From the NCBI GenBank assembly GCA_963777615.1, contig CAVZSD010000031.1, positions 7,181 through 71,180 of the forward strand: a DNA stretch of 64,000 nt, read 5' to 3'. The notes below the pieces were generated by a model. That model was not told where the DNA came from. It searched no databases and saw only the letters and a list, made by a program, of their open reading frames with translations. The position numbers and the translations under genes were made by a program. Positions 963 through 46,087 of the stretch are shown piece after piece. Numbering within the stretch: the stretch's first letter is position 1; every line of letters begins with the position of its first letter. This stretch comes from an uncultured Bacteroidota bacterium. Its GTDB lineage: Bacteria; Bacteroidota; Ignavibacteria; Ignavibacteriales; Ignavibacteriaceae.

Positions 963-1160
963 TTAACCGAATATTTCTTTAAACAATTTTTCTTTATCCA
1001 GCCTAGACTGCCATTGCCGATGACGTTTTACCGATTCCGTTCTTTTTTGGTTTAATTTAGAAAGGAACCTACTGGTTTCTAACGGGCCTAACTTTTCGGT
1101 TAACAATCTTATTGCTTTATTAAAAAGCTCTTCTTCACTTATATATTCATTTGTCCTCAT
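963..1160 (-). CDS. Small charged helical protein, possible TA partner of the upstream PIN remnant
   Basis: 65-aa ORF. Its ATG overlaps (ATGA) the stop of the PIN remnant. Sequence ..LTEKLGPLETSRFLSKL.. I cannot assign a family with certainty. Confidence 0.45.
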   Translation of the reverse strand: MRTNEYISEEELFNKAIRLLTEKLGPLETSRFLSKLNQKRTESVKRHRQWQSRLDKEKLFKEIFG

Positions 1161-1252
1161 TTTAATTCCTCCTTAATACAAAATTCTATTGGATTTAGCA
1201 CTTCTACTTTTGCTCTTTTACTCCGTTTTATAAACTTATCATCACAGGTAAT
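1157..1252 (-). pseudogene. C-terminal remnant of a PIN-domain toxin, truncated at a family-A repeat boundary
   Basis: Minus-strand reading ITCDDKFIKRSKRAKVEVLNPIEFCIKEELK* is a typical PIN C-terminus (..IT.D..F....V.VL.P.EF). The frame starts abruptly at ..ATACCGAT, which is the edge of the repeat at 1251-1360. Confidence 0.45.
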
Positions 1253-1360
1253 CGGTATGATTACGATTAATTATTAACGGGGGAAAATAATTTCAGCAAT
1301 TAAGTAATAGATTTCTCTTTCTAAGACTTGCCTTCTCAGGAAGACTCCTTCGAAATGACA
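1251..1360 (-). repeat. Family-A modular intergenic repeat
   Basis: Contains CGGTATGATTACGATTAATTATTAAC..AGTAATAGATTTCTC..TCGAAATGAC, the reverse complement of the 16478-16570 and 17484-17570 modules. Confidence 0.8.
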
Positions 1361-1399
1361 TATCCAAGGTTATGCAGCACTTTCGGGTTGAGGCACGAA

Positions 1400-2052
1400 T
1401 TAAGTGTTAATTGATTTTTTTATAACCAAATGCATTGCCTTTTCGATTGAAACATTTTTAATACATTTATAGCCCAGTGATTTGAGATCCAAATTCAAAA
1501 AAAGATTTTCACCGCTTCCTAAAATTACAGGTGATTGAACTAAATGTAATTCATCTATTAATTGAGCCTTAAGATATTGGCGAATTGTACTAACCACTCC
1601 GCCAAGCCTTACGTCTTTGCCGTTTGCAGAATCAAAAGCTTTTTCAAGAGCTGCGTTAATCCCATCCGTTACAAAGTGAAAAGTGGTGCCGCCTTCCATC
1701 TCAATTGATTCGTGCTTATGATGAGTTAAGATAAATACAGGCACATGATACGGCGGGTGTCTCCCCACCATCCTTTCCATTCAGCATTAGGTGCGCCGCG
1801 GTATGGACTAAACATATTGCGCCCTAAAATCCAGGCGCCTATATTTTTAAATCCGTTTTCGGCAAATTCATTATCAACTCCTGTTGTGCCGTCACTCTTT
1901 CCTAATACATTTTGCTGAAAAGTTTTTGTGGGATAAAACCATTGGTGAAGCTCCGGGCCCCCGACTCCCAAAGAATTTTCCAGGCTTTGATTTGGCCCTG
2001 CGCCAAATCCGTCCACTGAAATAGAAAAACTTTGAACACGTAATTTTTGCAT
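1400..2052 (-). pseudogene. Dihydrofolate reductase family protein (RibD C-terminal domain type), one frameshift
   Basis: ORFs 1726..2052 and 1400..1780 join as ..AEWKGWWGD/PPYHVPVFILTHH.. N-terminus MQKLRVQSFSISVDGFGAGP and ..LHLVQSPVILGSGENLF are typical of this family. Confidence 0.75.
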
Positions 2053-2230
2053 TAATAAATCCTTTCAAAAAATTTAGTAAATGCTTCTTGGCCTGGCGAA
2101 GTCATGACATTTGAAAACTGTCAGTCTAAAACAAGCACAAATGATGCTAGGAGTAAAATGTTCTATTACTTTCATCAGCCTTCTTTTGCCAAACCTGTGT
2201 TAGGCGTTTGTTGTTTTTCATCAGTTACTT

Positions 2231-2665
2231 TTACCCATTATATTTTGGGTCAAAATCCACTATCCATTCAATACCGTATTTGTCTCTAAACATTCCAAAA
2301 TATGTACCCCAAGGACTATCACCAATATCTCCTTCTATTTGTCCTCCTACAGAAAGCCCATTAAATAGTTTGTCTGCTTCTTCTTTACTTTCTGCACTAA
2401 TGAAAATTTTGCTTCTGTTTTCATTTTCATTTGTTCGTCCCATGCTTTCAGGAACATCATTTGCCATCAGCATATTATTTTTACCGATAGGCAAAGCAAT
2501 ATGCATGATTTTATTTTCTTCTTTTTTTTCTACAGGGAATTCGGGGCTTGCAATGTCTTTGAAACGAATAACTTTTGCAAACTCTCCGCCAAATACTGAT
2601 TTGTAAAAATTGAATGCTTCTTCGGCATTTCCATTAAAGTTAATGTGTGGATTAATAAATGCCAT
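2231..2665 (-). CDS. VOC family protein (PhnB / 3-demethylubiquinone methyltransferase-like fold)
   Basis: MAFINPHINFNGNAEEAFNFYKSVFGGEF..IMHIALPIG..LMANDVP..SKEEADKLFNGLSVGG..SPWGTYFGMFRDKYGIEWIV. The internal ATG at 2665 is the likely start. Confidence 0.75.
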   Translation of the reverse strand: MAFINPHINFNGNAEEAFNFYKSVFGGEFAKVIRFKDIASPEFPVEKKEENKIMHIALPIGKNNMLMANDVPESMGRTNENENRSKIFISAESKEEADKLFNGLSVGGQIEGDIGDSPWGTYFGMFRDKYGIEWIVDFDPKYNG

Positions 2666-2820
2666 AATTTTATTTAACCTCCTATAATAATTTATTATAA
2701 AATAACTATCACTGCTAACATGATCTTTCAATCAACCATTTATCCATTCAATCATTCTCCAATGGATTTAAATTTCACCTGAGCAGTAGTATACAAACTT
2801 CTAAAATATTTTTTGCTGAC

Positions 2821-3435
2821 TTAAGCTCCAACATTTCCTGTCTTAACTTTTCCAGCACGCTTGTAGCCGGCAACGATAACTCCGCTTGGTGTAGCAATAC
2901 TTTCTACTAATTTAAATGCTGCCGGAATTGCCCCATTGCTAAAAATCTTTTTTCCTTTACCAAGAGTTATCGGATGAATTTGAAGCCAGAGTTCGTCCAC
3001 TAAATCATTTGCGAGTAAAGTTTGTATGAGCTTTCCGCTACCCCAAACTTTAATATCAGAACCTTTTGAACCTCGCTTGCCTGCGGATTGATTTTTAAGC
3101 TTTTTGATATCTGCCACGCTTTTTAGGAAAACTGAGTTTTTCCAATCCGACTTTTTCATAGTTTTTGACACCACGTATTTTGTGACATCATTGATGCCCG
3201 GCCAAAAGTCTGAATGTTCAGGCCAGTACGAGGCAAAAATCTCAAATGTTTTTCTGCCTAAAAGAAGGTCTGCAGGTTTCATCTGTTTTTGCATAACCTT
3301 ACCAAGAATTTCGTCGCCATAAGGTGCAGTCCAGCCGCCATATTTGAATCCGCCTGATCTATCTTCCTTAGGCCCGCCAGGTGCTTGCATTACCCCATCC
3401 ATTGTAATCATTGATATGACAATTATTTTTCTCAT
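2821..3435 (-). CDS. Dihydrofolate reductase family protein (RibD C-terminal domain type)
   Basis: MRKIIVISMITMDGVMQAPGGPKEDRSGGFKYGGW..WLQIHPITLGKGKKIF. Paralogous in type to 1400..2052. Confidence 0.8.
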   Translation of the reverse strand: MRKIIVISMITMDGVMQAPGGPKEDRSGGFKYGGWTAPYGDEILGKVMQKQMKPADLLLGRKTFEIFASYWPEHSDFWPGINDVTKYVVSKTMKKSDWKNSVFLKSVADIKKLKNQSAGKRGSKGSDIKVWGSGKLIQTLLANDLVDELWLQIHPITLGKGKKIFSNGAIPAAFKLVESIATPSGVIVAGYKRAGKVKTGNVGA

Positions 3436-3550
3436 GTCCGGACTCCTTCATTTAAATTTATGTGACTAAGTTATTATTTATTAATAACTCGATTATTAAT
3501 ATTGAACAACTCTAATCTAAATGTATATAATAAGTAAGGAAAGGGATATA

Positions 3551-3755
3551 TGCGTCAATTTTAATGGCTGGTTGCGACATTTAAATAATTAAAACCGAAA
3601 AGAAAGTAAGAAAAAGATTTTTCACATTGTGATCTCACATTGTGATCGCTATGCGAGATTCCGATAAAAACCATCGGTATAAGTACGATTAATTATCAAC
3701 ACGCACAGAGGAAAATCATATTAGTAATAAAGTAATAGATTTCTCTCTCGAAGGC
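3551..3755 (-). repeat. Family-A modular intergenic repeat (both modules)
   Basis: Reverse complement matches 15063-15212 (..ATACCGATG.TTTTTATC.GAATCTCGCATAGCGATCACAATGTGAGATCAC..CTTTTCGGTTTTA..) plus the GAGAAATCTATTAC..TTGATAATTAATCGTACTTATACCGATG module. Confidence 0.85.
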
Positions 3756-3903
3756 CTAAATGTCGGTAGGCAGGCAAGAAACTAAACACAGCTTGCCCCG
3801 ACCTTTCGGTGGAACGACAAACATTAAAACCCCAAAAATACCAAGGGCGAAATCGCCGTAGCTTTAAGCCACTGGTTAGGTTTACTTCCCCTTTAAGTTT
3901 TTA

Positions 3904-4164
3904 CTAATTTATCCTATCCCAATTCGGAACTTCTCTTGATGGAACCTTTGCTATTATCTTTTTTACTTTCTTCTTTAAAGTGTTAACAGCCTTTTTTGAT
4001 AATCTTGATTCCAAAATAGAAACCGATTCTAATTGTGTTAACTGAGAATTTAATAAATAATTAGTTAATTGATTTATTGAAACCCCTTGATATTTGGCTT
4101 CTCTCTCAAGTCTTCTTTTTAAATCTTTTGGCAATCGTAATGTTACAACTTGTGTATCACTCAT
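3904..4164 (-). CDS. Ribbon-helix-helix (Arc/HicB-like) antitoxin
   Basis: MSDTQVVTLRLPKDLKRRLEREAKYQGVSINQLTNYLL has an RHH N-terminus. It overlaps the PIN gene stop by 4 nt. Confidence 0.7.
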   Translation of the reverse strand: MSDTQVVTLRLPKDLKRRLEREAKYQGVSINQLTNYLLNSQLTQLESVSILESRLSKKAVNTLKKKVKKIIAKVPSREVPNWDRIN

Positions 4165-4592
4165 TTTTTTACCTCTAACATTTTATATAATTCTTTCGGT
4201 GTTACTACTTTAAATCCAAAACCTTTTAATTCACCTTGCTTAAAATCTTTTATATTAGATGTAACTAAATAATCACTATTACTTGCAAATGCACATTCCA
4301 TAAAAATATTATCGTTTTCATCAGGAAGATTAGGACGTAATAAATAATATATAGAATATTTCTGAGCCAACAAGGCTAACAAATCCAGAAAATCTTCCAC
4401 TTCCTTCACGGAAAGATTTAACAGCTGAAGATTTTTTTCTCTCATCAATACATCATAATATTCAAAATATACTTGTGGAGAAACAGCTAATTTTATTTTC
4501 TCATCAATAATCATTTTAACAATTAAATGAGAAGCTCCTTTATTACTATAAAGCGCGGAGAAAATTACGTTTTTATCAACTGTTAAAATCAT
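4161..4592 (-). CDS. PIN-domain toxin
   Basis: MILTVDKNVIFSALYS..(D)..DENDNIFMECAFASNSDYLVTSNIKDF shows the PIN acidic residues. It is translationally coupled to the RHH gene. Confidence 0.75.
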   Translation of the reverse strand: MILTVDKNVIFSALYSNKGASHLIVKMIIDEKIKLAVSPQVYFEYYDVLMREKNLQLLNLSVKEVEDFLDLLALLAQKYSIYYLLRPNLPDENDNIFMECAFASNSDYLVTSNIKDFKQGELKGFGFKVVTPKELYKMLEVKK

Positions 4593-4669
4593 ATATTGTA
4601 ATGATAGCACATATACTTACAATTTTCAAGAGAGGAAATATCTAAGTGGTGATTGTAAACCTAATTAAT

Positions 4670-4948
4670 TCATAACCTGATTCTTAAATTCCTTTGGACT
4701 AACCCCCCACTTCTTTTTTGAACAAACCTAAAAAATAAGTCGTGTCTTTCGCATGGCGATTGCTTTGCGGCAAAACCAAACCGGTATGCAATTTCAGAAA
4801 TACTTTTTCCCCATTCAACCAACAAATTTTTTGCTTTGGAGATTACATAAAGATGGATCAGTTCCAGAGTAGTTTTACTAGTTTCATAAGTAAGAGTATG
4901 AAATTCAGGAAATCTCATTTTCCCATTGTATGAAATGAACTGGATCAT
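4670..4948 (-). pseudogene. 3' fragment of an AraC-family regulator gene (HTH region only, frame-disrupted)
   Basis: ..AKNLLVEWGKSISEIAYRFGF.. then the expected ..FKKEVG.SPKEFKNQVMN* appears in other frames. There is no N-terminal domain. Confidence 0.55.
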
Positions 4949-5036
4949 CTATTGAAAATTTTAGGCAGTTATTTTCTGTAATTACCACCTTCTCACTTGA
5001 TAAATGATTCAGGATAAAGGCTTGTATGGACCCAAT

Positions 5037-5360
5037 TCAGTTTAAAGGGATTTCCAAACCAGTTTTTATTACTTCATTAGCAATTAAATTATTTAGGTTA
5101 AAATCCTCCGGCCTGAAGGCTATAGGTTCTATACGCGTATCTATTTTCCAGGTAAGTTTGCCAAGATTTACATTATCAATAAATTTGTTTCCAGTAAATG
5201 AAGACGAAATAATAGCTAAATCTATGTCGCTCTCATTTGTAGCCTTTCCTGATGCGTAAGAACCAAATAAAAATACTTTTTCAACATTGTACTGTTTCTT
5301 TACGGCTTGCAAGTATTCTGTAATCGAGTCTGGTATTTCTAAATTTTTGCCTTCAACCAT
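5037..5360 (-). CDS. Minimal nucleotidyltransferase (MNT) antitoxin of a HEPN/MNT pair
   Basis: ..KVFLFGSYASGKATNESDIDLAII.. shows the GS-x10-DxD NTase motif. 107 aa. It overlaps the HEPN gene end. Confidence 0.8.
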   Translation of the reverse strand: MVEGKNLEIPDSITEYLQAVKKQYNVEKVFLFGSYASGKATNESDIDLAIISSSFTGNKFIDNVNLGKLTWKIDTRIEPIAFRPEDFNLNNLIANEVIKTGLEIPLN

Positions 5361-5725
5361 AATCTCAGTTTTTCTGTTGTATTAAATCTTTCTTCTGTGA
5401 ATTCTTTCGTTGCTAATTAGTACAAACTAAATTTTTCATCGGGATAACGTGTATCTAATTAAAACTGGTTTAGTTCCTCAAAAAATTGCAGATGATCTGG
5501 ATTAAGTTCTATTTTAGCAATTTCAGCCAATCTTAAAAGATTATGAGTTTTTAGAGGATGTTGATTTGTTTCTTTCACAACCAGCGCTTTAAGTAACTTT
5601 TCAATAACCAGATGACAAATAAATAAACAAAAATGAAAATTCTTATTTGATTCAAAAATGTCGGTTGCTGTTTCCCAATCCAAATCAGAAGTCAGCCAGT
5701 ATTTTATTTGTTTTTCCTTGTCCAA
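5339..5725 (-). pseudogene. HEPN-domain toxin gene with two in-frame TAA codons
   Basis: The ORF 5459..5725 ends ..FFEELNQF*. The same frame continues LDTRYPDEKFSLY*LATKEFTEERFNTTEKLRLWLKAKI*. The in-frame stops are at 5459-5461 and 5417-5419, with no frame change. Confidence 0.7.
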
Positions 5726-5860
5726 TAGAATCTATTGTTTTATTATGGTATAAATTAAATAATCTATAAAGTAGTATCAAGATAATATTGAAATGTAAAT
5801 AGGTGAATACAAAATCAATAATCGAAGTTAGCTTATAGAACAAATAAATGAATGAACTAA

Positions 5861-6062
5861 TTCATAACCCGGTTCTTAAATTCCTTTGGACTAACCCCCA
5901 CTTCTTTTTTGAACAAACTTAAAAAATAAGTCGTGTCTTTCGCATGGCGATCGTTTTGCAGAAAAACCAAGCCGGTATGCAATTTCAACAATAGTATTTG
6001 TGCCTTCAACAAGTATATTTTTATCTAACCTTGACAACGACTTTTCCTCATTCTCAACTTAC
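5861..6062 (-). pseudogene. Second AraC-family 3' gene fragment (paralogue of 4670-4948)
   Basis: 5861-5988 is about 90% identical in DNA to 4669-4797. Minus-strand reading ..RLDKNILVEGTNTIVEIAYRLGF.. Confidence 0.45.
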
Positions 6063-6138
6063 GTTACTACATTTATTGGCCTTGTAATGTGCTATGACTG
6101 CAATTGCAAATGCACGGCATTCTTCATCGGATTAATAA

Positions 6139-6897
6139 CTAGCAAATGCACTTTTTAGGATTCACCAAGCCGAATGCTAATTTAGGAAAAAGCCGGCTGA
6201 AAATGTAAATCACTTTTGTATCACCGACACGTATGGTAAGCTGATCCTTTTTAATTCCGACAATCAACGCTTTGACCAGTTTTTCTGGAGTTATCGTTTT
6301 TGTATTGAAACCGGCGGCCATATCTGTTGCAACAAGTGGGGGCAAAAGTTCGAAAACTTTAATGTGGCTGTTCAAAATCTGCAAGTGTCTCCTAAGTGAT
6401 TCGGTATAAAAGCGTAACGCCACTTTAGAAGCTGAATAGGTTGGTTCAAGCAGCGAGGGAACATAGCTCAGTATGGAAGTTGTATTGATAATTGCCGCAT
6501 CTTTTCTTGATTTTAACATATCTATAAAAAGATTGTTCAGACGAATTACCCCAAGGTAATTGATATTCATTTCATACTCTGCTTCCTCAAAATGTTTAGC
6601 ATTTGCAATTCCCAGATTAAGCGGCGTACCTAAAACACCCGCATTATTGTATAATATATCTATTCCCCCCAATTCTTTTATTTGGCTTAAAAGTAACTGC
6701 GCGTCATCAGCATTTGCCACGTCGCTATTGATAGTAGTTAAATCTGGATATATTTTTTTCGCTGCATCCAGTTTGGCCTGATTCCTACCTGTGATTATAA
6801 CTTTTGCGCCATTGGCAAAAAATTGCTTTGCTGCTTCCAACCCGATACCTGCGCTGAACCACCAGTGATTAGATACTGTTTTTCCTTTTAATTCCAT
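6139..6897 (-). CDS. SDR family oxidoreductase
   Basis: ..NNAGV..; ..YSASKVAL.. (YxxxK); 252 aa. The N-terminal glycine motif is locally scrambled (TVSNHWWFSAGIG); see findings. Confidence 0.85.
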   Translation of the reverse strand: MELKGKTVSNHWWFSAGIGLEAAKQFFANGAKVIITGRNQAKLDAAKKIYPDLTTINSDVANADDAQLLLSQIKELGGIDILYNNAGVLGTPLNLGIANAKHFEEAEYEMNINYLGVIRLNNLFIDMLKSRKDAAIINTTSILSYVPSLLEPTYSASKVALRFYTESLRRHLQILNSHIKVFELLPPLVATDMAAGFNTKTITPEKLVKALIVGIKKDQLTIRVGDTKVIYIFSRLFPKLAFGLVNPKKCIC

Positions 6898-6932
6898 GAT
6901 TTTGTTTCCTTTCTATTTATTTCTTATATTTG

Positions 6933-6981
6933 CTTGCAAATTGCAAGTGGAAATATAATAATTAACTTGCAATGTGCAAGT
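6933..6981. promoter_or_regulatory. Two perfect 6-3-6 palindromes (CTTGCA-N3-TGCAAG), probable HxlR-type operator in a divergent promoter region
   Basis: CTTGCAAATTGCAAG at 6933-6947 and CTTGCAATGTGCAAG at 6966-6980. Centres are 33 bp apart. The site lies between the SDR gene (minus) and the HxlR gene (plus). Confidence 0.5.
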
Positions 6982-7000
6982 GATTTAAAAATATATTTTT

Positions 7001-7417
7001 ATGATTATGAATAAAACCAAGAAAAGGTCAGATTGCCCGGTTAGCTGCTCCCTCGATATATGGGGAGATAAATGGTCGCTTTTGATTATTAGAGACCTAA
7101 TGTTAGACAAGAAGTGTACCTATGGTGACTTTTTAAAATCGCCGGAAGGAATAGCTACCAATATTTTAGGTTCAAGGCTTCAGGTGCTGGAAGAAAATAA
7201 GATTATTGAGAGATTAGAACATCCCGACAGTAAAGCAAAAGTGTTATATAAGTTAACTCAAAAAGGGATTGACCTTCTTCCCATTTTGATTGAAATAAAT
7301 TTATGGGCTGAAAAATATTTTTCTACTATACCGGAAGATAGAAAAGCAATGTTGAAAGAGGTGAAAAAAGATAAAGCCGGATTTATTAAAGCAATGAAGA
7401 AAGAATTGGCTGCTTGA
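7001..7417 (+). CDS. HxlR-family winged-helix transcriptional regulator
   Basis: ..CPVSCSLDIWGDKWSLLIIRDL..ILGSRLQVLEENKIIER.. It is divergent from an SDR gene, which is the usual arrangement. Confidence 0.85.
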   Translation: MIMNKTKKRSDCPVSCSLDIWGDKWSLLIIRDLMLDKKCTYGDFLKSPEGIATNILGSRLQVLEENKIIERLEHPDSKAKVLYKLTQKGIDLLPILIEINLWAEKYFSTIPEDRKAMLKEVKKDKAGFIKAMKKELAA

Positions 7418-7436
7418 ATTATAGATGTTCAATTTA

Positions 7437-7512
7437 ACTTAGAAGCTGGTTTTTAAATTCCTTTGGACTTATACCAACTACTTTTTTAACAGGCGGTGAA
7501 AAATAAGAAAGA
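7437..7512 (-). pseudogene. Third short AraC-family C-terminal remnant
   Basis: Minus-strand reading LSYFSPPVKKVVGISPKEFKNQLL matches the AraC C-terminal consensus F..FKK..G.SP.EF. Confidence 0.35.
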
Positions 7513-7654
7513 ATTATTTATACCTTTTTACGTTAACTGAAGTGATGATTATAAAGTTTCCGCAAATAATTCTCATTTTACCTTAAACGCTTTTTCCATC
7601 ATTAACTGTTCTGATTTTGAAATTGAATATTTCTCCGCCACAGCTTTCCAATCA

Positions 7655-8845
7655 CTAACCTTTACTCTTAATATCGTCAATAATTTTTTTTGCTTCATTT
7701 TTTTTTATTCTGAATTCTTCCGCAATTTCTATTGCCAGCTCAAAATTTAGGGAGTTATCGTTTTCTGAAATATTTAAACTTAATCCCGTACCCATTTCAT
7801 TTGGATTAACATCAAAAGCTGGAGAAAGTATCCAGCCTTTTTCTGTTAAGATAAAACCATGATTTCTTAAATGATCATCTGTATTCGAAACGGTAATGTT
7901 GAATACTATTCTTTTCCATAATTCTTTCAAATCTTCCTTAATCATTGCGCCATTTTTGCTTAAGAACTCTGCTAATTCAAGGTAGCTTGCGCCTGCATGC
8001 GAATCCCTGTTATCAGTATAACCAAGCATTGTCATTGCAGATGCAAAATGAATTCTCTTTGACTTTTCTCTATCAAATCTTTTTACAAGAAATGTATGGT
8101 ACTTATTTGCAAACCGTTCAACCCTAGCTTCTGCGAGGTTCAATCCACACCTTACAGCTAAAGTATGTACAACTATTTCCCAGCCTCCAACATCTTTGCT
8201 ATCACTAACACTGGGAAATTTTGCAATCCACAAATCACCGTTCTTATCTTTTATACTGGCTTTAGGACGAGCGCCTCCGAGCGAAGAACCTGGAGCTATG
8301 AGCATATTCATCCATTTTATATGCTCTTCATTAGTTATATCATCATCTTCTTCTAATCTTAAGCTTGCCGTTTGTAATTCACTTAATGATGTTATTGGTG
8401 GTACAGCAAGTGATCCGTCTTGATTTACGAATTCTCCATTCTCGGTTAATTTAAATCTTAATCCACCCATCCTGTTCTCATCATAAACCCCCAATAAATA
8501 GTCGGATTCCATTAGTGTTTTAGCTTGCCGCCTTTCATTTCTTGCAAGTATAGCTTCTCGCTTTTTCATTAAAACCCTTCCCCAGCGATCCGGTGATGAA
8601 TCAAGAAAAATTCCGAAGTTATTTTTGTTATTATCCAAATAGTGCGGCCCTGTGAAAAGTTGCAAGTCGGGATCAATAACTTGTGCGAATTTTGTTTTCA
8701 ACCATTCATCCGAATACTCAAAAGAAAATATTTCTTTACCCCTTACAATTTCGGAATGTAATATTCCGAGTAATGCCGGGGGATCTTTAATTCCTTTCCA
8801 ATCTGCATAAACAAATATATTTTTTCTAGTATCTGCCTTTGCCAT
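7655..8845 (-). CDS. hipA: HipA-family serine/threonine kinase toxin
   Basis: 396 aa. N-terminal coupling domain ..IFVYADWKG..LGILHSE..FSFEY.. Kinase core ..GSSLGGARPKA.., ..NTDDHLRNHGF.., ..LSPAFDVNP.. Confidence 0.85.
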   Translation of the reverse strand: MAKADTRKNIFVYADWKGIKDPPALLGILHSEIVRGKEIFSFEYSDEWLKTKFAQVIDPDLQLFTGPHYLDNNKNNFGIFLDSSPDRWGRVLMKKREAILARNERRQAKTLMESDYLLGVYDENRMGGLRFKLTENGEFVNQDGSLAVPPITSLSELQTASLRLEEDDDITNEEHIKWMNMLIAPGSSLGGARPKASIKDKNGDLWIAKFPSVSDSKDVGGWEIVVHTLAVRCGLNLAEARVERFANKYHTFLVKRFDREKSKRIHFASAMTMLGYTDNRDSHAGASYLELAEFLSKNGAMIKEDLKELWKRIVFNITVSNTDDHLRNHGFILTEKGWILSPAFDVNPNEMGTGLSLNISENDNSLNFELAIEIAEEFRIKKNEAKKIIDDIKSKG

Positions 8846-8848
8846 ATT

Positions 8849-9190
8849 TTAATCCTCTGATTTTCTTTTTGGTGCTCTGTGTTTTACAGCTAATTTTGCA
8901 TCTTGTAATTTTCTACCTAAGAGATCATCATTCGCAACATTTAACAAATCATCCGCCAAGCCCAGTACAGATAAAACCTGTGTAAAGTTTCCAAGGCTTA
9001 CACCGGGATTTCCTTTTTCAATTTCATACAAAGTTCTTCTGCCAATTCCTGCCCTTTCGGCAACTTGCTGAGTACTTAATTTTCTTCTCAAACGAGCAAG
9101 TCTGAGGTTCTCTCCAAGCACTCTTACAATATTAACGGTTTTATTTTGAAACATAGTTACAGTTCCTTCATAATGAGTTTTATACTGCAC
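8849..9190 (-). CDS. hipB: XRE-family HTH antitoxin (HipB-like)
   Basis: ..LRLARLRRKLSTQQVAERAGIGRRTLYEIEKGNPGVSL.. It lies 3 nt upstream of hipA. The start could instead be the internal ATG at 9154. Confidence 0.8.
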   Translation of the reverse strand: MQYKTHYEGTVTMFQNKTVNIVRVLGENLRLARLRRKLSTQQVAERAGIGRRTLYEIEKGNPGVSLGNFTQVLSVLGLADDLLNVANDDLLGRKLQDAKLAVKHRAPKRKSED

Positions 9191-9690
9191 AAATATAGTA
9201 AGTTTTGGGCAAAATACCGCACATTATCAAACAATAAATTGAGGTGGAACAATACATTATTTTGTGTTTCTAACGAAAGGAGTAAAATACATTCCACTTA
9301 AATGAACTAAAATAAAAACCCGTTCATATCAACAGTAAAACTTTTTCATCTAAAGTTATTCAATTCCTAAATGTTTTTTTATAATTCCAAATTTGATATT
9401 GTCCTAATTTCCATAATCATTAACGAATAATTCATCCATCGACTCCGCTCAGGATGACGATTTAATTACATTAGAAATGGTAACGGAGTTGAACCATGAC
9501 TCAGTTATGCAAATTAAAACACTGCTCCAAATTTGTCTCACTGAAATGCCGTCTCTTAGAAATATTTACATTGCTGGAATAAGGACGCACGTATGCAAAA
9601 AGGCGGTATTACTTATACATTTTTTCTTTTAACATTTTGGTGTTTCTTTTCTATTTGCAGAAAAGAAAAAGCTCACCCAAATAAAATTAA

Positions 9691-9775
9691 TCGAAATTAT
9701 ACAGATGTTTTTTAAAATACTTTTTACTACATTCTGCGCGTGTTAATTTAAATTGAAATCGCCAATCGCAATTAT
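9691..9775 (+). repeat. Degenerate family-A repeat (module Y), plus orientation
   Basis: ATTATACAGATGTTTTTTAAAATACTTTTTACTACATTCT..AAATTGAAATCGCCAATCGCAATTAT aligns with 17570-17650. Confidence 0.55.
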
Positions 9776-10097
9776 ATAATTAGGATATTTGAATAAAGTC
9801 GGCACTTACGAGAATGCCTAAATTATAAAACACATTGCATTATTTGGCTTGTTGGATAATAGATTAGCGATATCATATTTTATAACAGTATTATCTTATG
9901 AGATTTTGTAAAACCCGAAATATGGTTATGCCGCTGTGCCCATATCTATGCTCTTTAGATTAATTTCTTGTGAAGTATAATTACTAGTTATAAGCTTAGT
10001 ATCAGAGTAAGTATAATCAAAATACAATAGATCTATTAGCGGCTGTTCAGTGAAAAGTCAGATGTATTTATATTAAACATTAAAAAAGGAACATATT

Positions 10098-10967
10098 ATG
10101 GTTTCAAATATTCAAAAAGAAAAAGCCGAACTGTTCTTGAAATTTCATCATGACAAAGAAATTCTGGTTCTGTTAAACTCGTGGGACATCGGAAGCTCTA
10201 AATTAATAGAAGCAAGCGGCTATAAAGCAATCGCAACAACAAGTATGGGAATAGCTGCCTCTTTAGGGTATCCTGACTGCCAGGTAATACAATTGTCGGA
10301 AATGATTGAAGCTATTACGGGAATAGTAAACGCAGTAAAAGTTCCGGTATCGGTGGATATAGAAGCCGGGTATGGAAATAATTTAAATGAAATAATTGAT
10401 TCTGTTAAAAAGATAATTGCAACAGGAATTGTTGGAATTAACATTGAAGACAGCATTGATTTAAATCCAATATTAATTGACGAGATGGAATTTTGTGAAA
10501 GAATATCAGCCATTCGTGCATTATCAGATTCACTGGGCTTTCATTTAGTAATTAATGCAAGAACGGATTCATTTTATACTTCGTCAGGTTCGCCGCAAGA
10601 AAAATTATCCGAATCAATTAAGCGCGGCAATAAATACCGGGAAGCCGGTGCCGACTGCATATTCGTACAGCCTGTATGGGAAAAAGAAACGATTTCAACA
10701 TTGGTTAAGGAAATTAATGCTCCAATAAATATTCTTTCAAACCCTACAATTGGGGCAGGATTACCCCTATCCGTTAGTGAACTGCAGGATTTAGGTGTTG
10801 CCCGTTTAAGTCTTGGTTCAAGTTTAATGAAAGCTACTTTAGCTTTAATTAAAAAAGTTGCAGACGAACTCACTGAAAAAGGTACTTACAATATTTTATT
10901 AGATACCTTAACACCGTTTCCCGAAGCTGCAAAGGCATATAAAATGGCAATAGGTTTGAACAAATGA
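10098..10967 (+). CDS. Isocitrate lyase / PEP mutase superfamily protein
   Basis: ..LNSWDIGSSKLIEASGYKAIATTSMGIAASLGYPD..VSVDIEAGYG..GINIEDS.. It lacks the bona fide PEP-mutase EDK..NS motif. Confidence 0.8.
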   Translation: MVSNIQKEKAELFLKFHHDKEILVLLNSWDIGSSKLIEASGYKAIATTSMGIAASLGYPDCQVIQLSEMIEAITGIVNAVKVPVSVDIEAGYGNNLNEIIDSVKKIIATGIVGINIEDSIDLNPILIDEMEFCERISAIRALSDSLGFHLVINARTDSFYTSSGSPQEKLSESIKRGNKYREAGADCIFVQPVWEKETISTLVKEINAPINILSNPTIGAGLPLSVSELQDLGVARLSLGSSLMKATLALIKKVADELTEKGTYNILLDTLTPFPEAAKAYKMAIGLNK

Positions 10968-11326: not shown

Positions 11327-12130
11327 ATGATTCTTAAACCAACTTTCCCAACAAAATTGCATCAAAAAACTGCTGAATTAGTTAGAGATTATTTTCTGAC
11401 AATACCAAATGTGGATACTATTTTGATTGTAAATTCTTGTGCCCGCGGCCAAGCAATTCCAGAAAGCGATCTTGACGTTGCTATTTTAGTTAAGTCAAGC
11501 ACTACTAAATTGGAAATAAAAGAAATTGAAATTAATTGGGAAAATTATTGTAGTAATCAACCAGAAATTTTAGAATATAAAAAATTAAATCGTTTTACTC
11601 ATTTACACTTAGATATCATTGATGGAATATATACGCCAACAATATTAGAAGTTGGAGCAGAATCAGACAATTTTGAAATTGAAATAGGAAATCAAATTTG
11701 TTACTCTGCGCCGATGAGTAATATCGGTTCGTATTTTGAAGAACTAAAAAATAAATGGCTGCCATATTATAATGAAGAATTAAGATTGGAAAGATTAGAT
11801 ATGATGCGAAGTGCTTGTGAATATGATTTAGAACATATTCCATATTTTATAAGAAGGGGTTTACATTTTCAAGCATTGGACATACTCTTTAAAGCTTTTC
11901 AAGAATATCTACAAGCACTTTTTATTGCTAATAGGATTTATCCAATTGCGTATAACAAATGGATAAAAGAACAAGTTATAAATTGGCTGAATAAACCAGA
12001 AGTGTATTCAAAATTTGCTTCTATTCTTTCAGTTAGTAATATTGAAAGTAATGAGATAAATGATAAAGCAAAAATGCTCTATGAGCTTTTAAATAATTTG
12101 TCAAATGAATATTTGACAAAAAACAACTAA
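11327..12130 (+). CDS. Nucleotidyltransferase-domain protein with helical C-terminal domain
   Basis: ..ILIVNSCARGQAIPESDLDVAILV.. (G-x-DxD NTase motif), then a helical tail ..WLPYYNEELRLERL.. Confidence 0.7.
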   Translation: MILKPTFPTKLHQKTAELVRDYFLTIPNVDTILIVNSCARGQAIPESDLDVAILVKSSTTKLEIKEIEINWENYCSNQPEILEYKKLNRFTHLHLDIIDGIYTPTILEVGAESDNFEIEIGNQICYSAPMSNIGSYFEELKNKWLPYYNEELRLERLDMMRSACEYDLEHIPYFIRRGLHFQALDILFKAFQEYLQALFIANRIYPIAYNKWIKEQVINWLNKPEVYSKFASILSVSNIESNEINDKAKMLYELLNNLSNEYLTKNN

Positions 12131-12339
12131 CAAGCATTCAGCCGAACATCTTTGTAATAGAACTGTGGCGAAGCTGTTTTCAAAGAGAAGTATGTGCTGT
12201 TCCTATGTAAAGTGTAATTAAAGGTTAACACTGTATTTCGTAAAATATTGAATAGAGATTTGCTGCTGCACGTATATTTATTTTCTTTCGGTTATTTTGT
12301 GTGAGTATAAGTATAAATTAAATAGATAAAAAAAATATT

Positions 12340-36121: not shown

Positions 36122-36286
36122 CTCAAGTTGACCGCTTAGTGTTGTAAACCGTTAAAACGGTTAATATTCTATATTTTTTTCTTATTAACCCACGGATTAA
36201 TCCGTGGGTTAATGAAACAAAAAGCAATTTTTGTAACCGTTTCAACGGTTTTTGTTACAAACAAATTTTTAGGCGGTCAACTTGAG
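36122..36286. mobile_element. Family-B MITE-like element with perfect 14-bp terminal inverted repeats
   Basis: CTCAAGTTGACCGC (36122-36135) and GCGGTCAACTTGAG (36273-36286). Internal hairpins AACCGTTAAAACGGTT, CCCACGGATTAATCCGTGGG and AACCGTTTCAACGGTT. Confidence 0.75.
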
Positions 36287-37426: not shown

Positions 37427-37996
37427 ATGAATCCCAAAATAATTGTTATAATTACTATTGCATACCTGTATGGATTTTTTGAATATTATTTAAGTTTTCG
37501 GCAAAGACAAAAAACTAAAATTGTTCGCAAAGGTGATAAAGGAAGTTTGCGGGTGCTTTTTATCTCTATAACAATTGGTTATTTGTTTTCTTTTTCTATT
37601 GCTGCCACGAAAATTGGCCGGATTTATAATTGGGATATTATGTTTGCATTTGGGATCTTAATAATAATCGTTGGGTTGATTATTAGGATTATCTCTATTA
37701 GAACACTTAAACAATACTTCACGTATTCTGTTGCCAAAGCTGAAAACCACGAACTAATTGAAAAAAGGTTTTATAAATTCATTAGGCATCCTGGTTATTT
37801 AGGCCAATTAATAATTTTCACCGGCATTTCTATTTCATTATCAAATTGGCTTTCCGTAATTCTCATGCTTCTATCGATTCTTGTTGGATATTTGAATCGC
37901 ATTACAGTTGAAGAAAATTTTATGGTTGAGCAAATGGGCGTTAGATATTCCGACTATCAGAAGAGGACAAAAAAGCTAATACCAAAAATTTATTAA
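37427..37996 (+). CDS. Isoprenylcysteine carboxyl methyltransferase (ICMT) family membrane protein
   Basis: Multiple TM segments. ..LIEKRFYKFIRHPGYLGQLIIFTGISI..ITVEENFMVEQMG.. Confidence 0.75.
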   Translation: MNPKIIVIITIAYLYGFFEYYLSFRQRQKTKIVRKGDKGSLRVLFISITIGYLFSFSIAATKIGRIYNWDIMFAFGILIIIVGLIIRIISIRTLKQYFTYSVAKAENHELIEKRFYKFIRHPGYLGQLIIFTGISISLSNWLSVILMLLSILVGYLNRITVEENFMVEQMGVRYSDYQKRTKKLIPKIY

Positions 37997-38149
37997 GTTA
38001 GCAGTGGCTATCAAGTTGCTCAGGACGGCAGCGAGTTCGCTTTCAATATTTGTATAAGTTAATAGTAGTGCTTTAGCAACCACGCCGCTAGGCGTTTCAC
38101 CTGGAAAGAGAGAAAATATAAAGAATATGCTTTAGAAGGAGGCATAGTT

Positions 38150-39207: not shown

Positions 39208-39811
39208 ATGAGTAAAGATTATTTTGAAAATAAATCAAAGGATTATGAGAAAGATAAAAACAGAGTTAATAATGTAAAAAATATAGCCGAAGCTGTTAAG
39301 CAGAATATATCGTTTGATAAATCTATGCAGATAATGGATTTTGGATCCGGAACCGGATTGCTGTTGGAAGAAATAGCTCCTCTTGTAAACAAAATTACTG
39401 CTGTAGATATTTCAAAATCCATGAACAATGAATTAGATGCTAAAAGAGAAAACTTAGGTTGTGAGATTGAAATAATTGAAATGGATTTAACCAAAACCAA
39501 ATTAGATAAAAAGTTTGATGGAATTATATCATCAATGACTATTGCACCATGTTAAAAACATACAGGCCTTGTTTATTGATTTCTATTCGATGTTAAATGA
39601 AAATGGGTTTATTGCTATTGCCGACTTAGATTTGGAAGATGGCAGTTTTCATACCGAAGATACAGGAGTATTTCATTTGGGGTTTGATAGGACAGAAGTT
39701 TTAAATTATGCAAAAGAAGCTGGCTTTAAAAATCTTAAAATTATGCCTGCAAGTATTGATTACAAACCTCAAGGGGAATATCCAATATTTTTGTTGGTTG
39801 GGAACAAATAG
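39208..39811 (+). pseudogene. Class I SAM-dependent methyltransferase, one frameshift (~39545)
   Basis: ..IMDFGSGTGLL..VDISKSM..GIISSMT/LHHVKNIQALFIDFYSMLNENGFIAIADL.. Confidence 0.7.
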
Positions 39812-39923
39812 GAATAATTTATTTTTGAAACTTATTTGTAACACAGTTAACAGTAGCATGTAAATTAAAAAAGGCAGCCTGTTTCCAAACCGCCTTTTAA
39901 CCCAAATCGATAGAACATATTAT

Positions 39924-39962
39924 AAACCCAATCCGGCAACTGCCGGATTGGGTTTATTTTCA
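39924..39962 (+). terminator. Rho-independent terminator
   Basis: AAACCCAATCCGGCA-AC-TGCCGGATTGGGTTT followed by ATTTT. Confidence 0.7.
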
Positions 39963-40770: not shown

Positions 40771-42036
40771 ATGTACAAATACTTATTCTTAATACTGTTT
40801 TGCCCCCAACTGATTTTTAGTCAATATAACCTGGATCATTTCATAAATGAAGCATTAAATAATTCTCCGCAAATTAAAAATTACAGCAGCTTATTTTTAA
40901 TAAACGATCTTCAAAAAAAGCTGGATGAAGCACAGAACTCAGCTTTCCAGGTTTATTTAACCGGCGATTATCTATTCTCTCCGTATTTCAACAATAACGG
41001 AAAATTAATTTCAACTAATCCTGATCCTAAAGCCATTGGTTACGACGTTGGAATTACTAACGGCGGAGAATATTCTGCGTTAATAAATGTTGATAAAAAT
41101 ATTTTTAACGGGCCTTTGCTCGATGCGCTGCAGGAACAAAGAAATATTCAGGGCAAAGGTTTCGAAAATAAATTGGAAGAAGAAAAACATAACTTAAAAA
41201 AGCAGGTAACCGACCAATACTTAGCTGCACTTCAAAATCTTGAGCTTTATAATCTTGAAAAAGAAATTCAAGACAACCTTGAAAACCAGCTTAAAATTAC
41301 TGGCGATTTAGTCCAGCAGGGAAATGCAAAAGTTCAGGATTATTTGCTGTTAAAAGTTGAAACGAAATCACAGCAAATAAATCTTAATCAAACCTGGCAG
41401 AATTATAAAAACGGACTTTTCCAGTTGATATTCCATTTGCGGCAATACAGACACACAAGTTGTAACTCTTGATTCAGTTAATTTGAAGTTTAACAAACAC
41501 TTCCCAGACAATCAAAATTTTTAACTCAATTTTATCTTGACAGTTTAGTACGGCGGCAGAGCAAAATGTTTTTGAATCAAAATATTCTCCGCAGATAAAA
41601 TTATTTTTTAATACAGGCTTAAATGCAGTTGAGATAGATAATATACAAAGAAGATTCGGGTTAAGTGCGGGAATAAATTTTTCTATTGCCGATTCTTGAT
41701 GGAGGGCAAAAAGATATAACCAGGCAGCAAAGTATGCTGGCTGAAAAGATCACAGGGGATTTTAAAAATTATGCAGCAAAAAATATATTTACACAAAGAA
41801 GAGATGCTGAAAATAAAATTAATTCTTTAAGAAAAAATATTGAGGATTATAAAAGCCAAATTGAGGATTATAAAAAATTATTGAGCATCTCCCTAGATCA
41901 ATTACAAAAAGGCAATTTATCTATGGTTGAATATTTAACGGAATTAAGAAATTATATTGATCTTCAAAAAAATTATATCTCAACGGAAATAAATTATCAG
42001 CTTGAAATTAGCAATTACAATTACTGGAATTGGTAA
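40771..42036 (+). pseudogene. TolC-family outer membrane efflux protein, several frame changes at 41430-41700
   Basis: ORFs 40771..41472 and 41686..42036 plus the intervening frames: ..LCGNTDTQVVTLDSVNLKF.., ..AEQNVFESKYSPQIKLFFNTGLNAV..GLSAGINFSIPILDGGQK.. Confidence 0.7.
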
Positions 42037-43086
42037 ATGAAAATAATAATTAAATTACTAATATGTCATTTCGACCGGAGGGAGAAATCTTCATCACCAA
42101 TAAGATTTCTCATTCGCAGACTCATTCGAAATGACAATCATATCCAAGCATCACAATTCAACAGACAATTGATAAAATCAATAATATTGATTTGCAATAT
42201 TTTTTTCTCTTTTAATTTATTCTTGCGGAAATGAAAGTGATAATTCAGCTGAAGCGAGTTACAACCGGTACGCCAGTCACTATTACTCATCCGGTTAAAA
42301 CCAGCATAAGCGATTACATTGAATTAAACGGCAGCACAGTTTTCTTAACAAAAGAAATTGCAAGAGCCACATTTGAAGGATATATAAAGAAAGTTTATAA
42401 AAATATTGGTGATTCAGTAAAAGCAGGAGAAGATTTATTCCAAATAAAAACAAAGGAATCTGCCGCTGCAGACAGTTTAAATATTTCTTTCGGAAATAAG
42501 CAGTTTAACGGAAGTGTAAATTTGAAAGCCCAATCCAACGGCGTGCTTACAGAATTAAATTATCATCAAGGTGATTTTATTTCTAACGGCGAACAATTAG
42601 CAGTGATTTCAAATCCATCTTCAATTAGGATTGATGTAGATGTTCCTTTTGAAGATGTTTCAAAAATCAAAATCGGAAACGAATGTAAAATTCAGCTTCC
42701 AGGTAATGAAATTATAAACGGAATAATTGATAGGAATATTCCAAGCGTTGATTCTACGACTCAAACTCAAACTTACTATATAAAATTAGTTAAATATAAT
42801 CCACTTCCCGAAAATTTAAATGTTACCGTCAGAATTTCTTTTAACAAATCAAATGATGCTATTGGTTCTGCCTAAATCTTCTCTTGTTACAAATGTAACA
42901 CAGGATTCATTTTGGGTAATGAAATTAATTAATGATACAACCGCTGTTAAAATCAACGTTACAAGGGGAATTGAAAACGACAGCGTAGTTCAAATCTTAA
43001 ATTCTAATTTAAAGCCTGATGATAAAATTATTTTAAGCGGAGCTTACGGATTGCCTGATACTGCAAAAGTAGAGATTGTAAAATGA
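42037..43086 (+). pseudogene. Efflux RND periplasmic adaptor (MFP) lipoprotein; palindromic element in the signal-peptide region plus frameshifts
   Basis: The ATG abuts the TolC stop. The lipobox ..IFFSLLIYSCGNESDN.. is visible after a 1-nt correction in the T7 run at 42200-42206. ..YIKKVYKNIGDSVKAGEDLFQI.. is the barrel-sandwich hybrid. 42820..43086 is the C-terminal part. Confidence 0.65.
42064..42136. repeat. Complete palindromic form of the family-A module X hairpin, inside the MFP gene
   Basis: TGTCATTTCGA-CCGGAGG-GAGAAATCTT-CATCACCAAT-AAGATTTCTC-ATTCGCAGACTCAT-TCGAAATGACA. Confidence 0.85.
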
Positions 43087-46000
43087 AGAACTTCTATGTT
43101 ACTTATAAAGGCCCCATTGCAGTAATCTTAATAATAATTTTATTAGGCGGACTATATTCACTGTTAAATATTCAGTCCGGCTTATTCCCCGATATAACTT
43201 TTCCCAAAATTAAAATAATTGCAGACAATGGCGAACAGCCGGTTGACAAAATGATGGTGACTGTTACCGTTCCATTGGAAAATGCAATTAAGCGAGTACA
43301 GGATTTAAATCTTGTTAGAAGCGCAACCAGCAGAGGAAGCTGTGAAATTTCAGCATTCTTCAATTGGAATTCAGATATTGATCTTGACCAGCAGAGAATT
43401 GAATCTAGGATAAATGAGATAAGACAAGATCTTCCCGCAGGTATAAATATTTCAGTTGAGAAAATGAATCCTTCCATTTTCCCAATAATGGGTTTTTCTT
43501 TAGAGGGCAAAGGCTACAGCCAAATTGAATTAAGAAACATAGCTGAATATACTATCAAACCTTATTTATCAAGAATTGATGGAATTTCAGAAATAGCAGT
43601 TGCGGGCGGAGAGGTTGAAGAATATCATATAATCCTTGATCCGGCAAAATTAAGCAACTTAAAAATTTCTCCTCAGGCAGTCGCAAATAAAATCTCCGAA
43701 TCAAATTTTATTTCTTCAACCGGATATTTAAACAGCTACAACAGACTTTATTTAACTTTAACAGAAGCAACACAAAAAAATAAAAGTGATCTTGAAAATT
43801 TGATTATCACAAATAATCAAAAAAGAGTTATAAGGTTAAAAGATATATCGAAAATTGAAATAGGTTCTGAAAGGCAATACGTTAAAATAAAAGCTAATGG
43901 AAAAGTTGTTCCGCTGATTAATATTTTAAAACAGCCTAATGCAAATCTTATTGATGTTGAAAATTCAATTAAACAAGAATTGCCCGCTTTGCAGCGGATT
44001 TTACCTAAAGGAATTATTCTTCGGCCATTTTATGACCAGGCAAATTTTGTTTCGGATGCAATCGGCAGTATAAAAGATGTAGTATGGATTGGCCTATTGT
44101 TAGCGATTTTTGTCACCATACTTTTTCTAAAATCGTTTAAAGCAAGTTCTGTTATTTTAGTAACTATCCCCTTAACACTTGGACTCACCTTTATTGTTTT
44201 GTACGCAATTGGATATACAATTAATATAATGACAATCGGAGCGATTGCCGCTTCAATTGGATTAATTATCGACGATGCAATAGTTGTGGTTGAACAAATT
44301 CACCGCACCCATGAAGAAAACCCTGAGGAAACCAGCAATACTTTGGTAATAAAAGCAATTAAATATTTAATCCCGGCAATGATTGGTTCTTCTCTAAGCA
44401 CTATAGTAATTTTCTTCCCTTTCTTTTTAATGAGCGGAGTAGCAGGAGCTTACTTCAAAGTGTTAACTAATACCATGATAATTACTTTGGTTTGTTCTTT
44501 CTTTGTTACCTGGATTGTATTGCCTGTAATTTATCTTCTCTTTTCGAAAAAAGAATCTGCTTTAAATGAACATAAAGAATTAAAGAAAAGAAGCTGGGTT
44601 TACTTTTTTATTTATAAACCTGCCATATCAATTGCGTTTGTAATTTTATTAATTGCTGCTTCATGGTTTATAGTTCCTTCTTTGCCTTCGGGATTTTTAC
44701 CTGATATGGATGAGGGCTCACTTATTCTGGACTTTGTAAGCCCGTCAGGAACTTCTCTTGAAGGTACCGACCAAATGCTCAATGTTGTTGACGATATTTT
44801 AAAACAAACTCCTGAAGTTGAAAGCTTTTCGCGTCAGATTGGAACGCAGAACGGCTTCTTTATTACTGAACCCAATACCGGTGATTATACAATCCAGTTG
44901 AAGAAAAAAGAGATCTTACTACAGAAGAAGTTGCCGATGAAATTCGGAAAAAAATTGAAGCGAAGCTGCCTGCACTTCAAGTAGACTTCGGTCAAATTAT
45001 TGAAGATATGATTGGAGATTTGATAAGCGGCAAACAGCCAATTGAAATAAAAATTTTTGGTGATGATCAGAGCACTCTTGAAAATATTGCCAACCAGATT
45101 GCAGATATTGTTGATAAAACTGAGGGCACTGCCGACTCATTTAATGGAATTACTGTCGCAGGACCAAGCATTGTTTTTAATCCAAGAAATGATGCGCTTG
45201 CTCGTTATGGTTTAACACCAAGTGATTTACAGTTTCAAATGAATACAAAAATTAAAGGTGAAGTTGTCGGAGATATTTTGGGGCAAAACCAGCTTTTCAA
45301 TATTAGAATGTTTGATGGAAAGCTTTATAATACCATGAACGATTTAAATCATGGCTTCATTTTTCTAAATGACGGCAATATTAAACCGGTTAGTGAGTTT
45401 GAAAATATTAAAATTCAAAAAGGTGTTGCCGAGATTGACAGAGAAAACTTGAAGCAGATGTTTGATGTATCAGCACGATTAAATAATAGAGATTTAGGAA
45501 GTACACTAAAGGACATTCAGGCCAGAATTAAAAAAGAAATTAAGCTGCCGGCCGGTTATGAAATTGTTTATGCCGGCTCTTACGCTGAACAGCAAAAAGC
45601 TTTTAGCGAATTAATGACAATACTAATTCTTGCAATACTTTTAGTGTTTACAGTAATTTTGTTTTTGTTTAGAAATGTTAAAGTATCACTAGCCATAATC
45701 TTTATAGCAATACTTGGAATTTCAGGAAGCTTGATTGCTTTATTCATAACCGGTACGCCCTTAAATGTGGGCAGCTATACAGGGATCATCATGATAGTAG
45801 GAATTATTGGAGAAAATTCCATCTTCACTTATTTGCAGTATCATGAATTTAAAATACAAAACCGCAGTAAAGAAGATGCAATTGTTTATTCAATTTCAAC
45901 CAGGCTGCGTCCCAAGCTAATGACAGCATTTGGTGCAATCATTGCGTTGCTGCCGCTTGCATTCGGAATTGGAACAGGCGCACAGATGCATCAGCCATTG

Positions 46001-46087
46001 GCAATTGCGATTATTGGTGGTTTTATTATTGCTTTACCGCTGTTGTTAATTGTGCTTCCTTCTATGCTTAGGTTAATTGAAAAGTGA
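43083..46087 (+). pseudogene. Efflux RND transporter permease subunit (AcrB/CzcA superfamily), one frameshift in an A6 run
   Basis: ORFs 43083..44984 and 45008..46087. The correct reading is ..QLKKK/RDLTTEEVADEIRKKIEAKLPALQVDFGQIIEDMIGDL.. The shift is at the A-run 44904-44909. Confidence 0.85.

Follow-up and report, generated by a model that had tools for sequence, protein, structure and literature searches.

Remnants of integron attC sites in a hypervariable accessory region of an Ignavibacteriales genome

The closest described counterparts of the locus reported here are the sedentary chromosomal integrons, exemplified by the Vibrio cholerae superintegron with its V. cholerae repeats (VCR) and by the integrons of Xanthomonas, which have in common with it an integrase of the IntI family, conserved lineage-specific attC sites, and small co-oriented cassettes rich in toxin-antitoxin (TA) pairs and genes of unknown function. 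In integrons of the Treponema denticola type, the integrase gene intI lies in the same orientation as the cassettes. Xanthomonas integrons are subject to genetic erosion, and the usual length range of attC is 57-141 bp (PMC5371416). Clusters of attC sites without an integron integrase (CALIN) have been proposed to be degraded integrons (IntegronFinder, PMC9024848), and integrons of the Ignavibacteriae and Chlorobi, which match the present one in phylum-level group and in their classical IntI, are already on record from IntegronFinder surveys (PMC9024848), which, unlike the present analysis, give no detail on attC length or scattered remnants. The subject of this analysis is the segment 7181-71180 of contig C31 in an Ignavibacteriales metagenome-assembled genome (MAG), designated G000; this whole stretch of 64,000 nucleotides is called the window, and positions are those of the window unless a contig is named. 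A first-pass annotation of the window had proposed an integron-like cassette array, an idea that is supported by IntI on contig C24, attC remnants after five genes and cassettes in genomes of the same genus (congeners), but opposed by the lack of any complete attC and the sparseness of the remnants. The best explanation, with a probability of roughly 0.6, is that the window is a hypervariable accessory region, part of whose gene load came as integron cassettes that are now eroded to a CALIN-like field. The window probably falls below the CALIN standard and is not an intact cassette array.

The genome (4.33 Mb, 70 contigs, 32% GC, completeness estimate 71%) encodes proteins with sorting tails of the type IX secretion system (T9SS), and relatives of its integrase carry the labels of Ignavibacteriales or 'Bacteroidetes' MAGs. 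A whole-genome profile search located the integron integrase at C24:3417-4354, with a TIGR02249 score of 291 bits compared to a cut-off of 265. Compared to its orthologues, which are whole (317-324 aa) in G004, G006 and G008, this intI carries two insertions of 1 nt each. Downstream of intI on C24, after a conserved open reading frame (ORF) of 127 aa, repeats follow on the same strand with a spacing of approximately 850 bp. Two related MAGs and the complete genome G008 likewise have a same-strand array of this repeat behind intact orthologues of 280-324 aa. The position of intI on the same strand as a downstream array in C24, L021, L022 and G008 is a likeness to the T. denticola type and a difference from the sedentary chromosomal integrons. 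The first-pass annotation had seen no integrase, which is correct for contig C31, flanks of the window included, where no tyrosine recombinase (TIGR02249 or PF00589) was matched, but does not hold for the genome with its IntI on C24; no serine recombinase was found in the whole genome.

The initial model of the repeat comprised only a 77-nt core, and alignment of longer flanks extended the unit to approximately 190 nt. The unit opens with xxTAAC and closes with ...GCAAAGCC|GTTAxx, its R boxes being AAC and GTT, and its 16-bp L stem, GCGGCT[C]AAGGCG[A]CAGC with GCTGCGCCTTAGCCGC, displays strong covariation and two conserved extrahelical bases among 65 full sites. In the trimmed alignment, 90.9% of cells in the L stem are paired, compared to 29-42% in slid controls, and 81 cells are doubly changed, compared to 32.5 in shuffles, none of 500 shuffles reaching 81. 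In four cassettes of C15 and one of C24, the R' at the opening of the cassette and the R'' of its own attC are complementary over 10-11 bp; such complementarity within each unit is the signature of circularisable integron cassettes and is a further point of agreement between the C15 and C24 arrays and the sedentary chromosomal integrons. The attC sites of the lineage are approximately 185-250 nt long (C15:2653-2846 and C24:466-2341 of G000; L021, L022, L060-L066), in contrast to the quoted 57-141 bp, and their loop of approximately 125 nt is 95-100% conserved between species in which IntI is only 83-85% identical. On the strength of the covarying L stem, the R boxes and the extrahelical bases, the repeats are attC sites of canonical type, with a loop that is both conserved and very long. 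The first-pass annotation could not fold the repeats into a canonical attC; the window has no complete site, and the lineage repeat is an attC on C15 and C24 and in relatives. An earlier structure of the 77-nt repeat, built from local pairings only (70% paired cells, weak covariation), was replaced by this long-range R/L structure, and an energy-based scan for generic attC sites was dropped: in such AT-rich DNA the consensus site folds just 1.1 standard deviations better than shuffles.

In the complete genome of G008, which belongs to another genus of the same family, an intact intI at 3.15 Mb is followed by three attC sites downstream on the same strand, and further sites lie elsewhere on the chromosome (G008:C1), in a cluster of three at 1.967 Mb, a cluster of two at 0.135 Mb and two single sites. 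Given this small integron and the distant clusters and single sites that accompany it, a scattered distribution of attC is normal for the family.

Searches of the window used three lineage-specific models: R1, a model of the 77-nt core that serves solely as a detector of left halves; R2, a 'mini-attC' model without the loop; and a full-length attC profile of 192 positions. R2 cannot bridge the loop of approximately 125 nt, so that true sites score just 12-26 bits; it is unable to exclude divergent long sites and is informative solely for the compact site at 38008. No complete attC was found in the window by these models, and the attC-derived sites were the following five:
3775-3883, minus strand: attC remnant with R'' box, L'' arm and the start of the loop (R1 match 3811-3883, 72.8 bits, E 4e-15; profile 2-87), starting 21 nt past the stop codon of a HicB-like gene (3904-4164), without right arm and without R' box.
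16414-16489, plus strand: attC left half (R1 62.5 bits; profile 6-74), 6 nt past the stop codon of a T9SS-tail gene (15363-16408), running into the left arm of repeat A, a palindromic repeat with dispersed copies.
17419-17495, plus strand: attC left half (R1 62 bits; profile 2-74), 7 nt past the stop codon of a PIN toxin gene (17002-17412).
18974-19135, plus strand: attC remnant with a weak left arm and conserved sequence of the loop (R1 match 18974-19062, 22.2 bits, E 0.006; profile 30-147, E 5e-8), overlapping by 10 nt the stop codon of a PDC-S19/DUF3644 gene and followed by Drt4/Drt6-type fragments.
38008-38091, plus strand: degenerate attC of compact form, both arms being present and the loop short (R2 16.7 bits, E 0.011 over the window; R1 15.6 bits at 38004-38079), 12 nt past the stop codon of an ICMT-like gene (37427-37996), with the triplets ATC/GCT instead of AAC/GTT.

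All five sites thus lie no more than approximately 21 nt from a stop codon, in each case that of a co-oriented gene, counting the one that overlaps it. An R1 match at 62897-62971 and an R2 match at 48140-48221 were rejected, as they overlap coding sequence and have no AAC/GTT. No right-arm partner of the half-sites was found within 600 nt: duplex energies equaled background, compared to -20.9 kcal/mol for two consensus controls, in a search that works for consensus controls and in which two divergent controls are indistinguishable from background. A scan for complementary cassette ends, the same that recovers the C15 and C24 cassettes, returned 13 pairs in the window compared to 11.9 expected per 64-kb strand, none of them at the attC remnants. 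Three of the sites (16414, 17419, 18974), all of them half-sites, fall within 2.7 kb; in these attC-derived sites without an integrase on the contig the window resembles a CALIN, but CALIN calls need a complete attC under the IntegronFinder model and the right arms are missing here. Site decay is also the trait in common with the eroded integrons of Xanthomonas. Compared to sedentary chromosomal integrons, the window differs in that its sites are only halves or mutated in the triplet and in that they number approximately one per 10 kb, as against approximately one per kb in true arrays. Beside the remnant at 18974, the candidate defence gene PDC-S19 (DUF3644; 18017-18984) is split into two overlapping ORFs, and the three ORF fragments at 19289-20671, which match a Drt4/Drt6-type defence reverse transcriptase (PADLOC) over its positions 39-113, 205-292 and 411-501, are a broken defence gene downstream of that remnant.

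The cassette origin of some of this gene content is seen in relatives. In six genomes of the same genus, pieces of the window the size of a gene recur with 72-95% identity, in differing orders and among differing neighbors, and colinear blocks extend over no more than approximately 12 kb. Each congener has 8-22 attC matches, which comprise a main array beside intI and scattered sites in regions like the window. Four units of the window adjoin attC in congeners:
10035-10967, plus strand: PEP-mutase unit, with copies 88-92% identical and differently neighbored in G002, G004, G006 and G012.
15330-16434, plus strand: unit of a T9SS-tail protein, a split ORF in the window and 348 aa in congeners.
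1400-2731, minus strand: VOC and RibD_C pair, recurring in five congener loci.
20877-22292, plus strand: unit containing two small ORFs and a tandem repeat with a 21-nt period, recurring in congeners.

One PEP-mutase copy is preceded by an attC in G004:C42 and another ends an array of five attC sites in G002:C7, and the T9SS-tail gene of G004:C10 begins directly where a full attC (L018 2380-2599) has ended with GCCG|TTAG; in congeners, the PEP-mutase unit thus behaves as a discrete cassette and the T9SS-tail unit is one. In G002:C8 (L019), attC pieces in matching orientation (11607-11757 and 13477-13546) lie on both sides of the VOC and RibD_C match (11911-13212), and in G004:C9 the counterpart of 20877-22292 (43636-44040) adjoins an attC (44063-44139). 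Comparison of related genomes, which the first-pass annotation had recommended, thus found gene-sized units that reorder, switch neighbors and are present or absent one by one. An unvarying gene order, which would have counted against the cassette idea, was not seen, and an even spread of the repeats over the whole genome regardless of gene content was seen only in part. Within the unit at 20877-22292, the tandem array of 21-nt units (GAATGACAAAGTGAGTGGAAG-like) occupies 21103-21312.

Together these observations suggest the following history. The classical IntI would recombine the folded attC of approximately 190 nt, and arrays beside intI keep intact sites, as seen on other contigs and in relatives. 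The cassettes of the window would be immobile, as their attC sites keep the R''/L'' half alone or, where both arms persist, have a mutated cleavage triplet. Overwriting of the loop and right arm by the palindromic repeat, a composite module, a miniature inverted-repeat transposable element (MITE) and fragments of insertion sequences (IS) is visible as mosaics in the spacers, while the order of events is conjectural, and loss of the right arm would have frozen the cassettes in place. Most of the other window genes may also have arrived as cassettes. Current reshuffling among congeners would most likely proceed by homologous recombination between repeats and by IS and MITE activity, not by IntI. 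The block on the minus strand could have arisen by inversion of a segment of such a region, and the co-orientation of genes would result from the polarity of cassette insertion combined with the strand bias of the contig.

The layout of the genes can be read in another way. As the first-pass annotation had described, every real-looking ORF of at least 80 aa from 10098 to 46087 is on the plus strand, and everything from 963 to 9190 is on the minus strand except for one HxlR gene (7001-7417). The mixture of unrelated functions that it listed was borne out by Pfam, which matched nucleotidyltransferases, methyltransferases, DUF1801/YdeI, lipocalin-like, cupin, DUF4256, DUF2938, DUF4386 and ICMT families in addition to RibD_C, VOC, HicB/PIN, MNT/HEPN, SDR, HxlR, HipA/HipB, PEP mutase and PIN, the TA genes among them being HicB/PIN, MNT/HEPN, HipBA and PIN; and the interspersed GC outliers are real (0.446 at 33-34 kb and 0.40-0.41 at 21-24 kb, compared to 0.324 for the genome). 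Of the 33 unrelated co-oriented genes that the annotation counted, the co-oriented run of 33 stands, but not all of them are independent small units, as the run includes operons, a cluster of paralogs and split ORFs. Counting ORFs of at least 100 aa, this run ranks only sixth in the genome, behind runs of 52, 42, 40, 39 and 37. The features that bear on this are:
40771-46087, plus strand: RND efflux operon (OEP, HlyD, AcrB, by Pfam), frameshifted, colinear with G002:C8 and G004:C10.
25575-28719, within the plus-strand run: paralogous cluster of T9SS-type proteins.
9191-10097, between the minus-strand and plus-strand blocks: strand-switch spacer of 907 bp, with a partial copy of the composite module, X, inside.

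The segment 40771-46087 is one operon, not a set of cassettes. Contig C31 overall is biased toward the plus strand, and GC skew tracks the local gene strand. A replication origin at the strand switch (9.2-10.1 kb) was considered and found to be unsupported: the skew reverses wherever the gene strand changes locally, the region is hypervariable among congeners, and a simple pattern scan found no DnaA boxes in the spacer.

These features raise the possibility, on balance unlikely, that the window is an ordinary leading-strand plasticity zone, filled by generic horizontal transfer and homologous recombination, in which the few attC fragments would be chance leftovers of cassettes that landed or recombined in it, the integron having contributed little to the architecture. 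The genome has many long co-oriented runs, the whole contig has a plus-strand bias with GC skew that follows gene strand, operons lie inside the run, attC remnants are few, complementary cassette ends are at background, and in the complete genome G008 the window genes have their homologues at scattered chromosomal positions, far from attC. What speaks against such a zone is the placement of every attC-derived site next to the stop codon of a co-oriented gene, the attachment of four window units to attC in congeners, and a content of TA pairs, VOC proteins, nucleotidyltransferases, defence genes and short ORFs that is typical of chromosomal integron cassettes. It differs from the best explanation mainly in the share of genes acquired as cassettes.

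Several further considerations weigh against the derivation of the window from integron cassettes. C31 and the intI contig C24 are separate contigs of a fragmented MAG (70 contigs, 71% complete). Sequence derived from attC is present at just 4-5 of approximately 45 gene borders, which leaves the majority of genes without direct evidence for an origin as cassettes; the attC models are lineage-specific, and divergent sites may escape them or may truly be absent. Breakpoints of homology between genomes often fall at a stop codon or inside repeats rather than at G|TT. The strand bias of the genome accounts equally well for the co-orientation of genes, and errors of assembly, as opposed to decay, may be the source of the split genes and of both 1-nt insertions in intI.

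This last point can be extended to the proposition that assembly or binning artefacts of the MAG, such as chimeric joins at repeats and indel errors, distort the architecture of the window, which is highly improbable. The completeness estimate of 71% at full genome size, the absence of any ORF of 1500 aa or more from the genome, the repeats at contig ends and the many ORFs that are split in the window and intact in congeners would fit such artefacts; rpoB, however, is whole (1252 aa), the same modules and types of junction occur in five independently assembled congeners, and several multi-gene stretches are colinear with relatives. At least eight 'genes' of the window are halves of split ORFs that are whole in congeners. 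Those at 1400-2052, 15363-16408, 33215-33896 and 39208-39811 correspond to intact proteins of 215, 348, 211 and 200 aa, respectively, and the operon at 40771-46087 is broken as well.

Most of the 'reusable modules' that the first-pass annotation saw in the spacers are repeat types other than attC. Modules are indeed reused and are oriented with the gene strand, but 27 of 49 spacers match only themselves genome-wide. The elements that fill the spacers include:
17498-17670, plus strand: reference copy of the composite module X (approximately 170 nt), in which the tail of repeat A is joined to modules B and C.
805-895, minus strand: copy of X, whole or partial, as are the next five.
1251-1328, minus strand: copy of X.
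3586-3756, minus strand: copy of X.
9678-9776, plus strand: copy of X.
15041-15222, plus strand: copy of X.
16496-16708, plus strand: copy of X.
20-648, plus strand: transposase-like ORF fragments, between the C part (C31:6464-6594) and the B/A part (805-895) of an inverted X.
42099-42139, minus strand: copy of the dispersed palindromic repeat A.
29843-30153: MITE of 311 bp with 17-bp terminal inverted repeats (AGAGGCTGTGTGAAAAT), with copies on C12, C16 and C32.
13909-14065: insertion of 157 bp, absent from G001, in which contig C31 joins 13908 straight to 14066 and is otherwise colinear.

Repeat A is a full palindromic hairpin of approximately 85 nt, with 26 copies on 17 contigs, and at 16474 and 17481 its left arm also abuts an attC half, the two meeting in a shared TTGTC motif. 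In G004, a copy of the MITE sits inside the attC of the T9SS cassette. The position of the fragments at 20-648 between the split parts of X indicates that an IS appears to have inserted into the module, although Pfam gave no match to these transposase-like ORFs. Another X copy is broken by a mini-element of 46 nt. Two more palindromic intergenic families are represented at 36146-36251 (copies on C7, C10, C16 and C61) and at 39917-39957 (copies on C21, C38, C52, C54 and C64).

The orientation of module X is always that of the downstream gene, and the module recurs in the variable regions of congeners. Seven of the ten genome copies of B and six of the ten of C are on contig C31. It was therefore considered whether X might be the site of a second, undescribed mechanism of gene shuffling or capture, independent of IntI and attC. 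The concentration of B and C on C31 and a few attC-bearing contigs, the adjacency of X to shuffled units in the variable regions of congeners, and a unit (824-1252) that ends within B modules with short inverted termini (ATTACC/GGTAAT) are compatible with such a mechanism. It is nevertheless quite improbable: the contig has no recombinase, X resembles a mosaic of decayed palindromic repeat and other pieces with IS and mini-IS insertions, the breakpoints are ambiguous because the flanks share repeats, the copy of unit 824-1252 in G004 has no X upstream, and X has neither an Rfam match nor a promoter signal above background. Rfam returned nothing at the gathering threshold over the window, nor at E <=1 over 14872-17730, and scans for sigma-70 promoters and terminators were at background. 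It is likewise doubtful, if somewhat less so, that the unusually long conserved attC loop might carry a function, for example as a promoter for cassette expression, or that X might be a functional mobile leader or recombination site that re-joins or moves single genes in the variable regions of the lineage independently of IntI.

Outside the window, the attC sites of this lineage are themselves a target of insertion. An IS110-family element of 1874 bp, with the domains PF01548 (DEDD_Tnp_IS110) and PF02371 (Transposase_20), lies in all copies exactly between GCC and GTT of an attC:
C15:3674-5547: IS110-family element.
C54:173501-175559: IS110-family element.
C61:66617 to the contig end: IS110-family element.
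G004:C20: three copies.

An IS1111-attC group has been described within the IS110-family insertion sequences (Tetu and Holmes 2008; Post and Hall 2009, as cited in PMC11187229). The element found here resembles that group in its DEDD transposase and its fixed insertion point in attC, and it differs in its host, Ignavibacteriales as opposed to Proteobacteria.

Some other features of the window were noted in passing. A protein with a T9SS tail (22759-24438) consists of four tandem repeats of 327 nt (109 aa) that are 78-86% identical; two copies, 86% identical, of the 3' remnant of an AraC-type gene are present at 4663-4831 and 5855-6022; and just beyond the end of the plus-strand run, on the minus strand, a small putative gene pair (46114-46546) resembles HicA/HicB.

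The first-pass annotation had also allowed that a different mechanism of gene capture might be at work, and nothing was found in its favor: the locus is a decayed example of a known integron system, with no support for a new capture mechanism, and the window is an ordinary decayed member of that system. Perhaps more useful than the window itself are the covariation-supported attC of approximately 190 nt, which is beyond the usual length range, and the IS110-family element that is aimed exactly at the attC crossover point. What the window displays is an eroded cassette field in a little-studied phylum, in which half-sites are fixed behind genes and small mobile repeats fill the spacers. A search of it with standard attC finders would probably turn up next to nothing, so that the cassette-derived gene pools of Bacteroidota and Ignavibacteriota may be undercounted.

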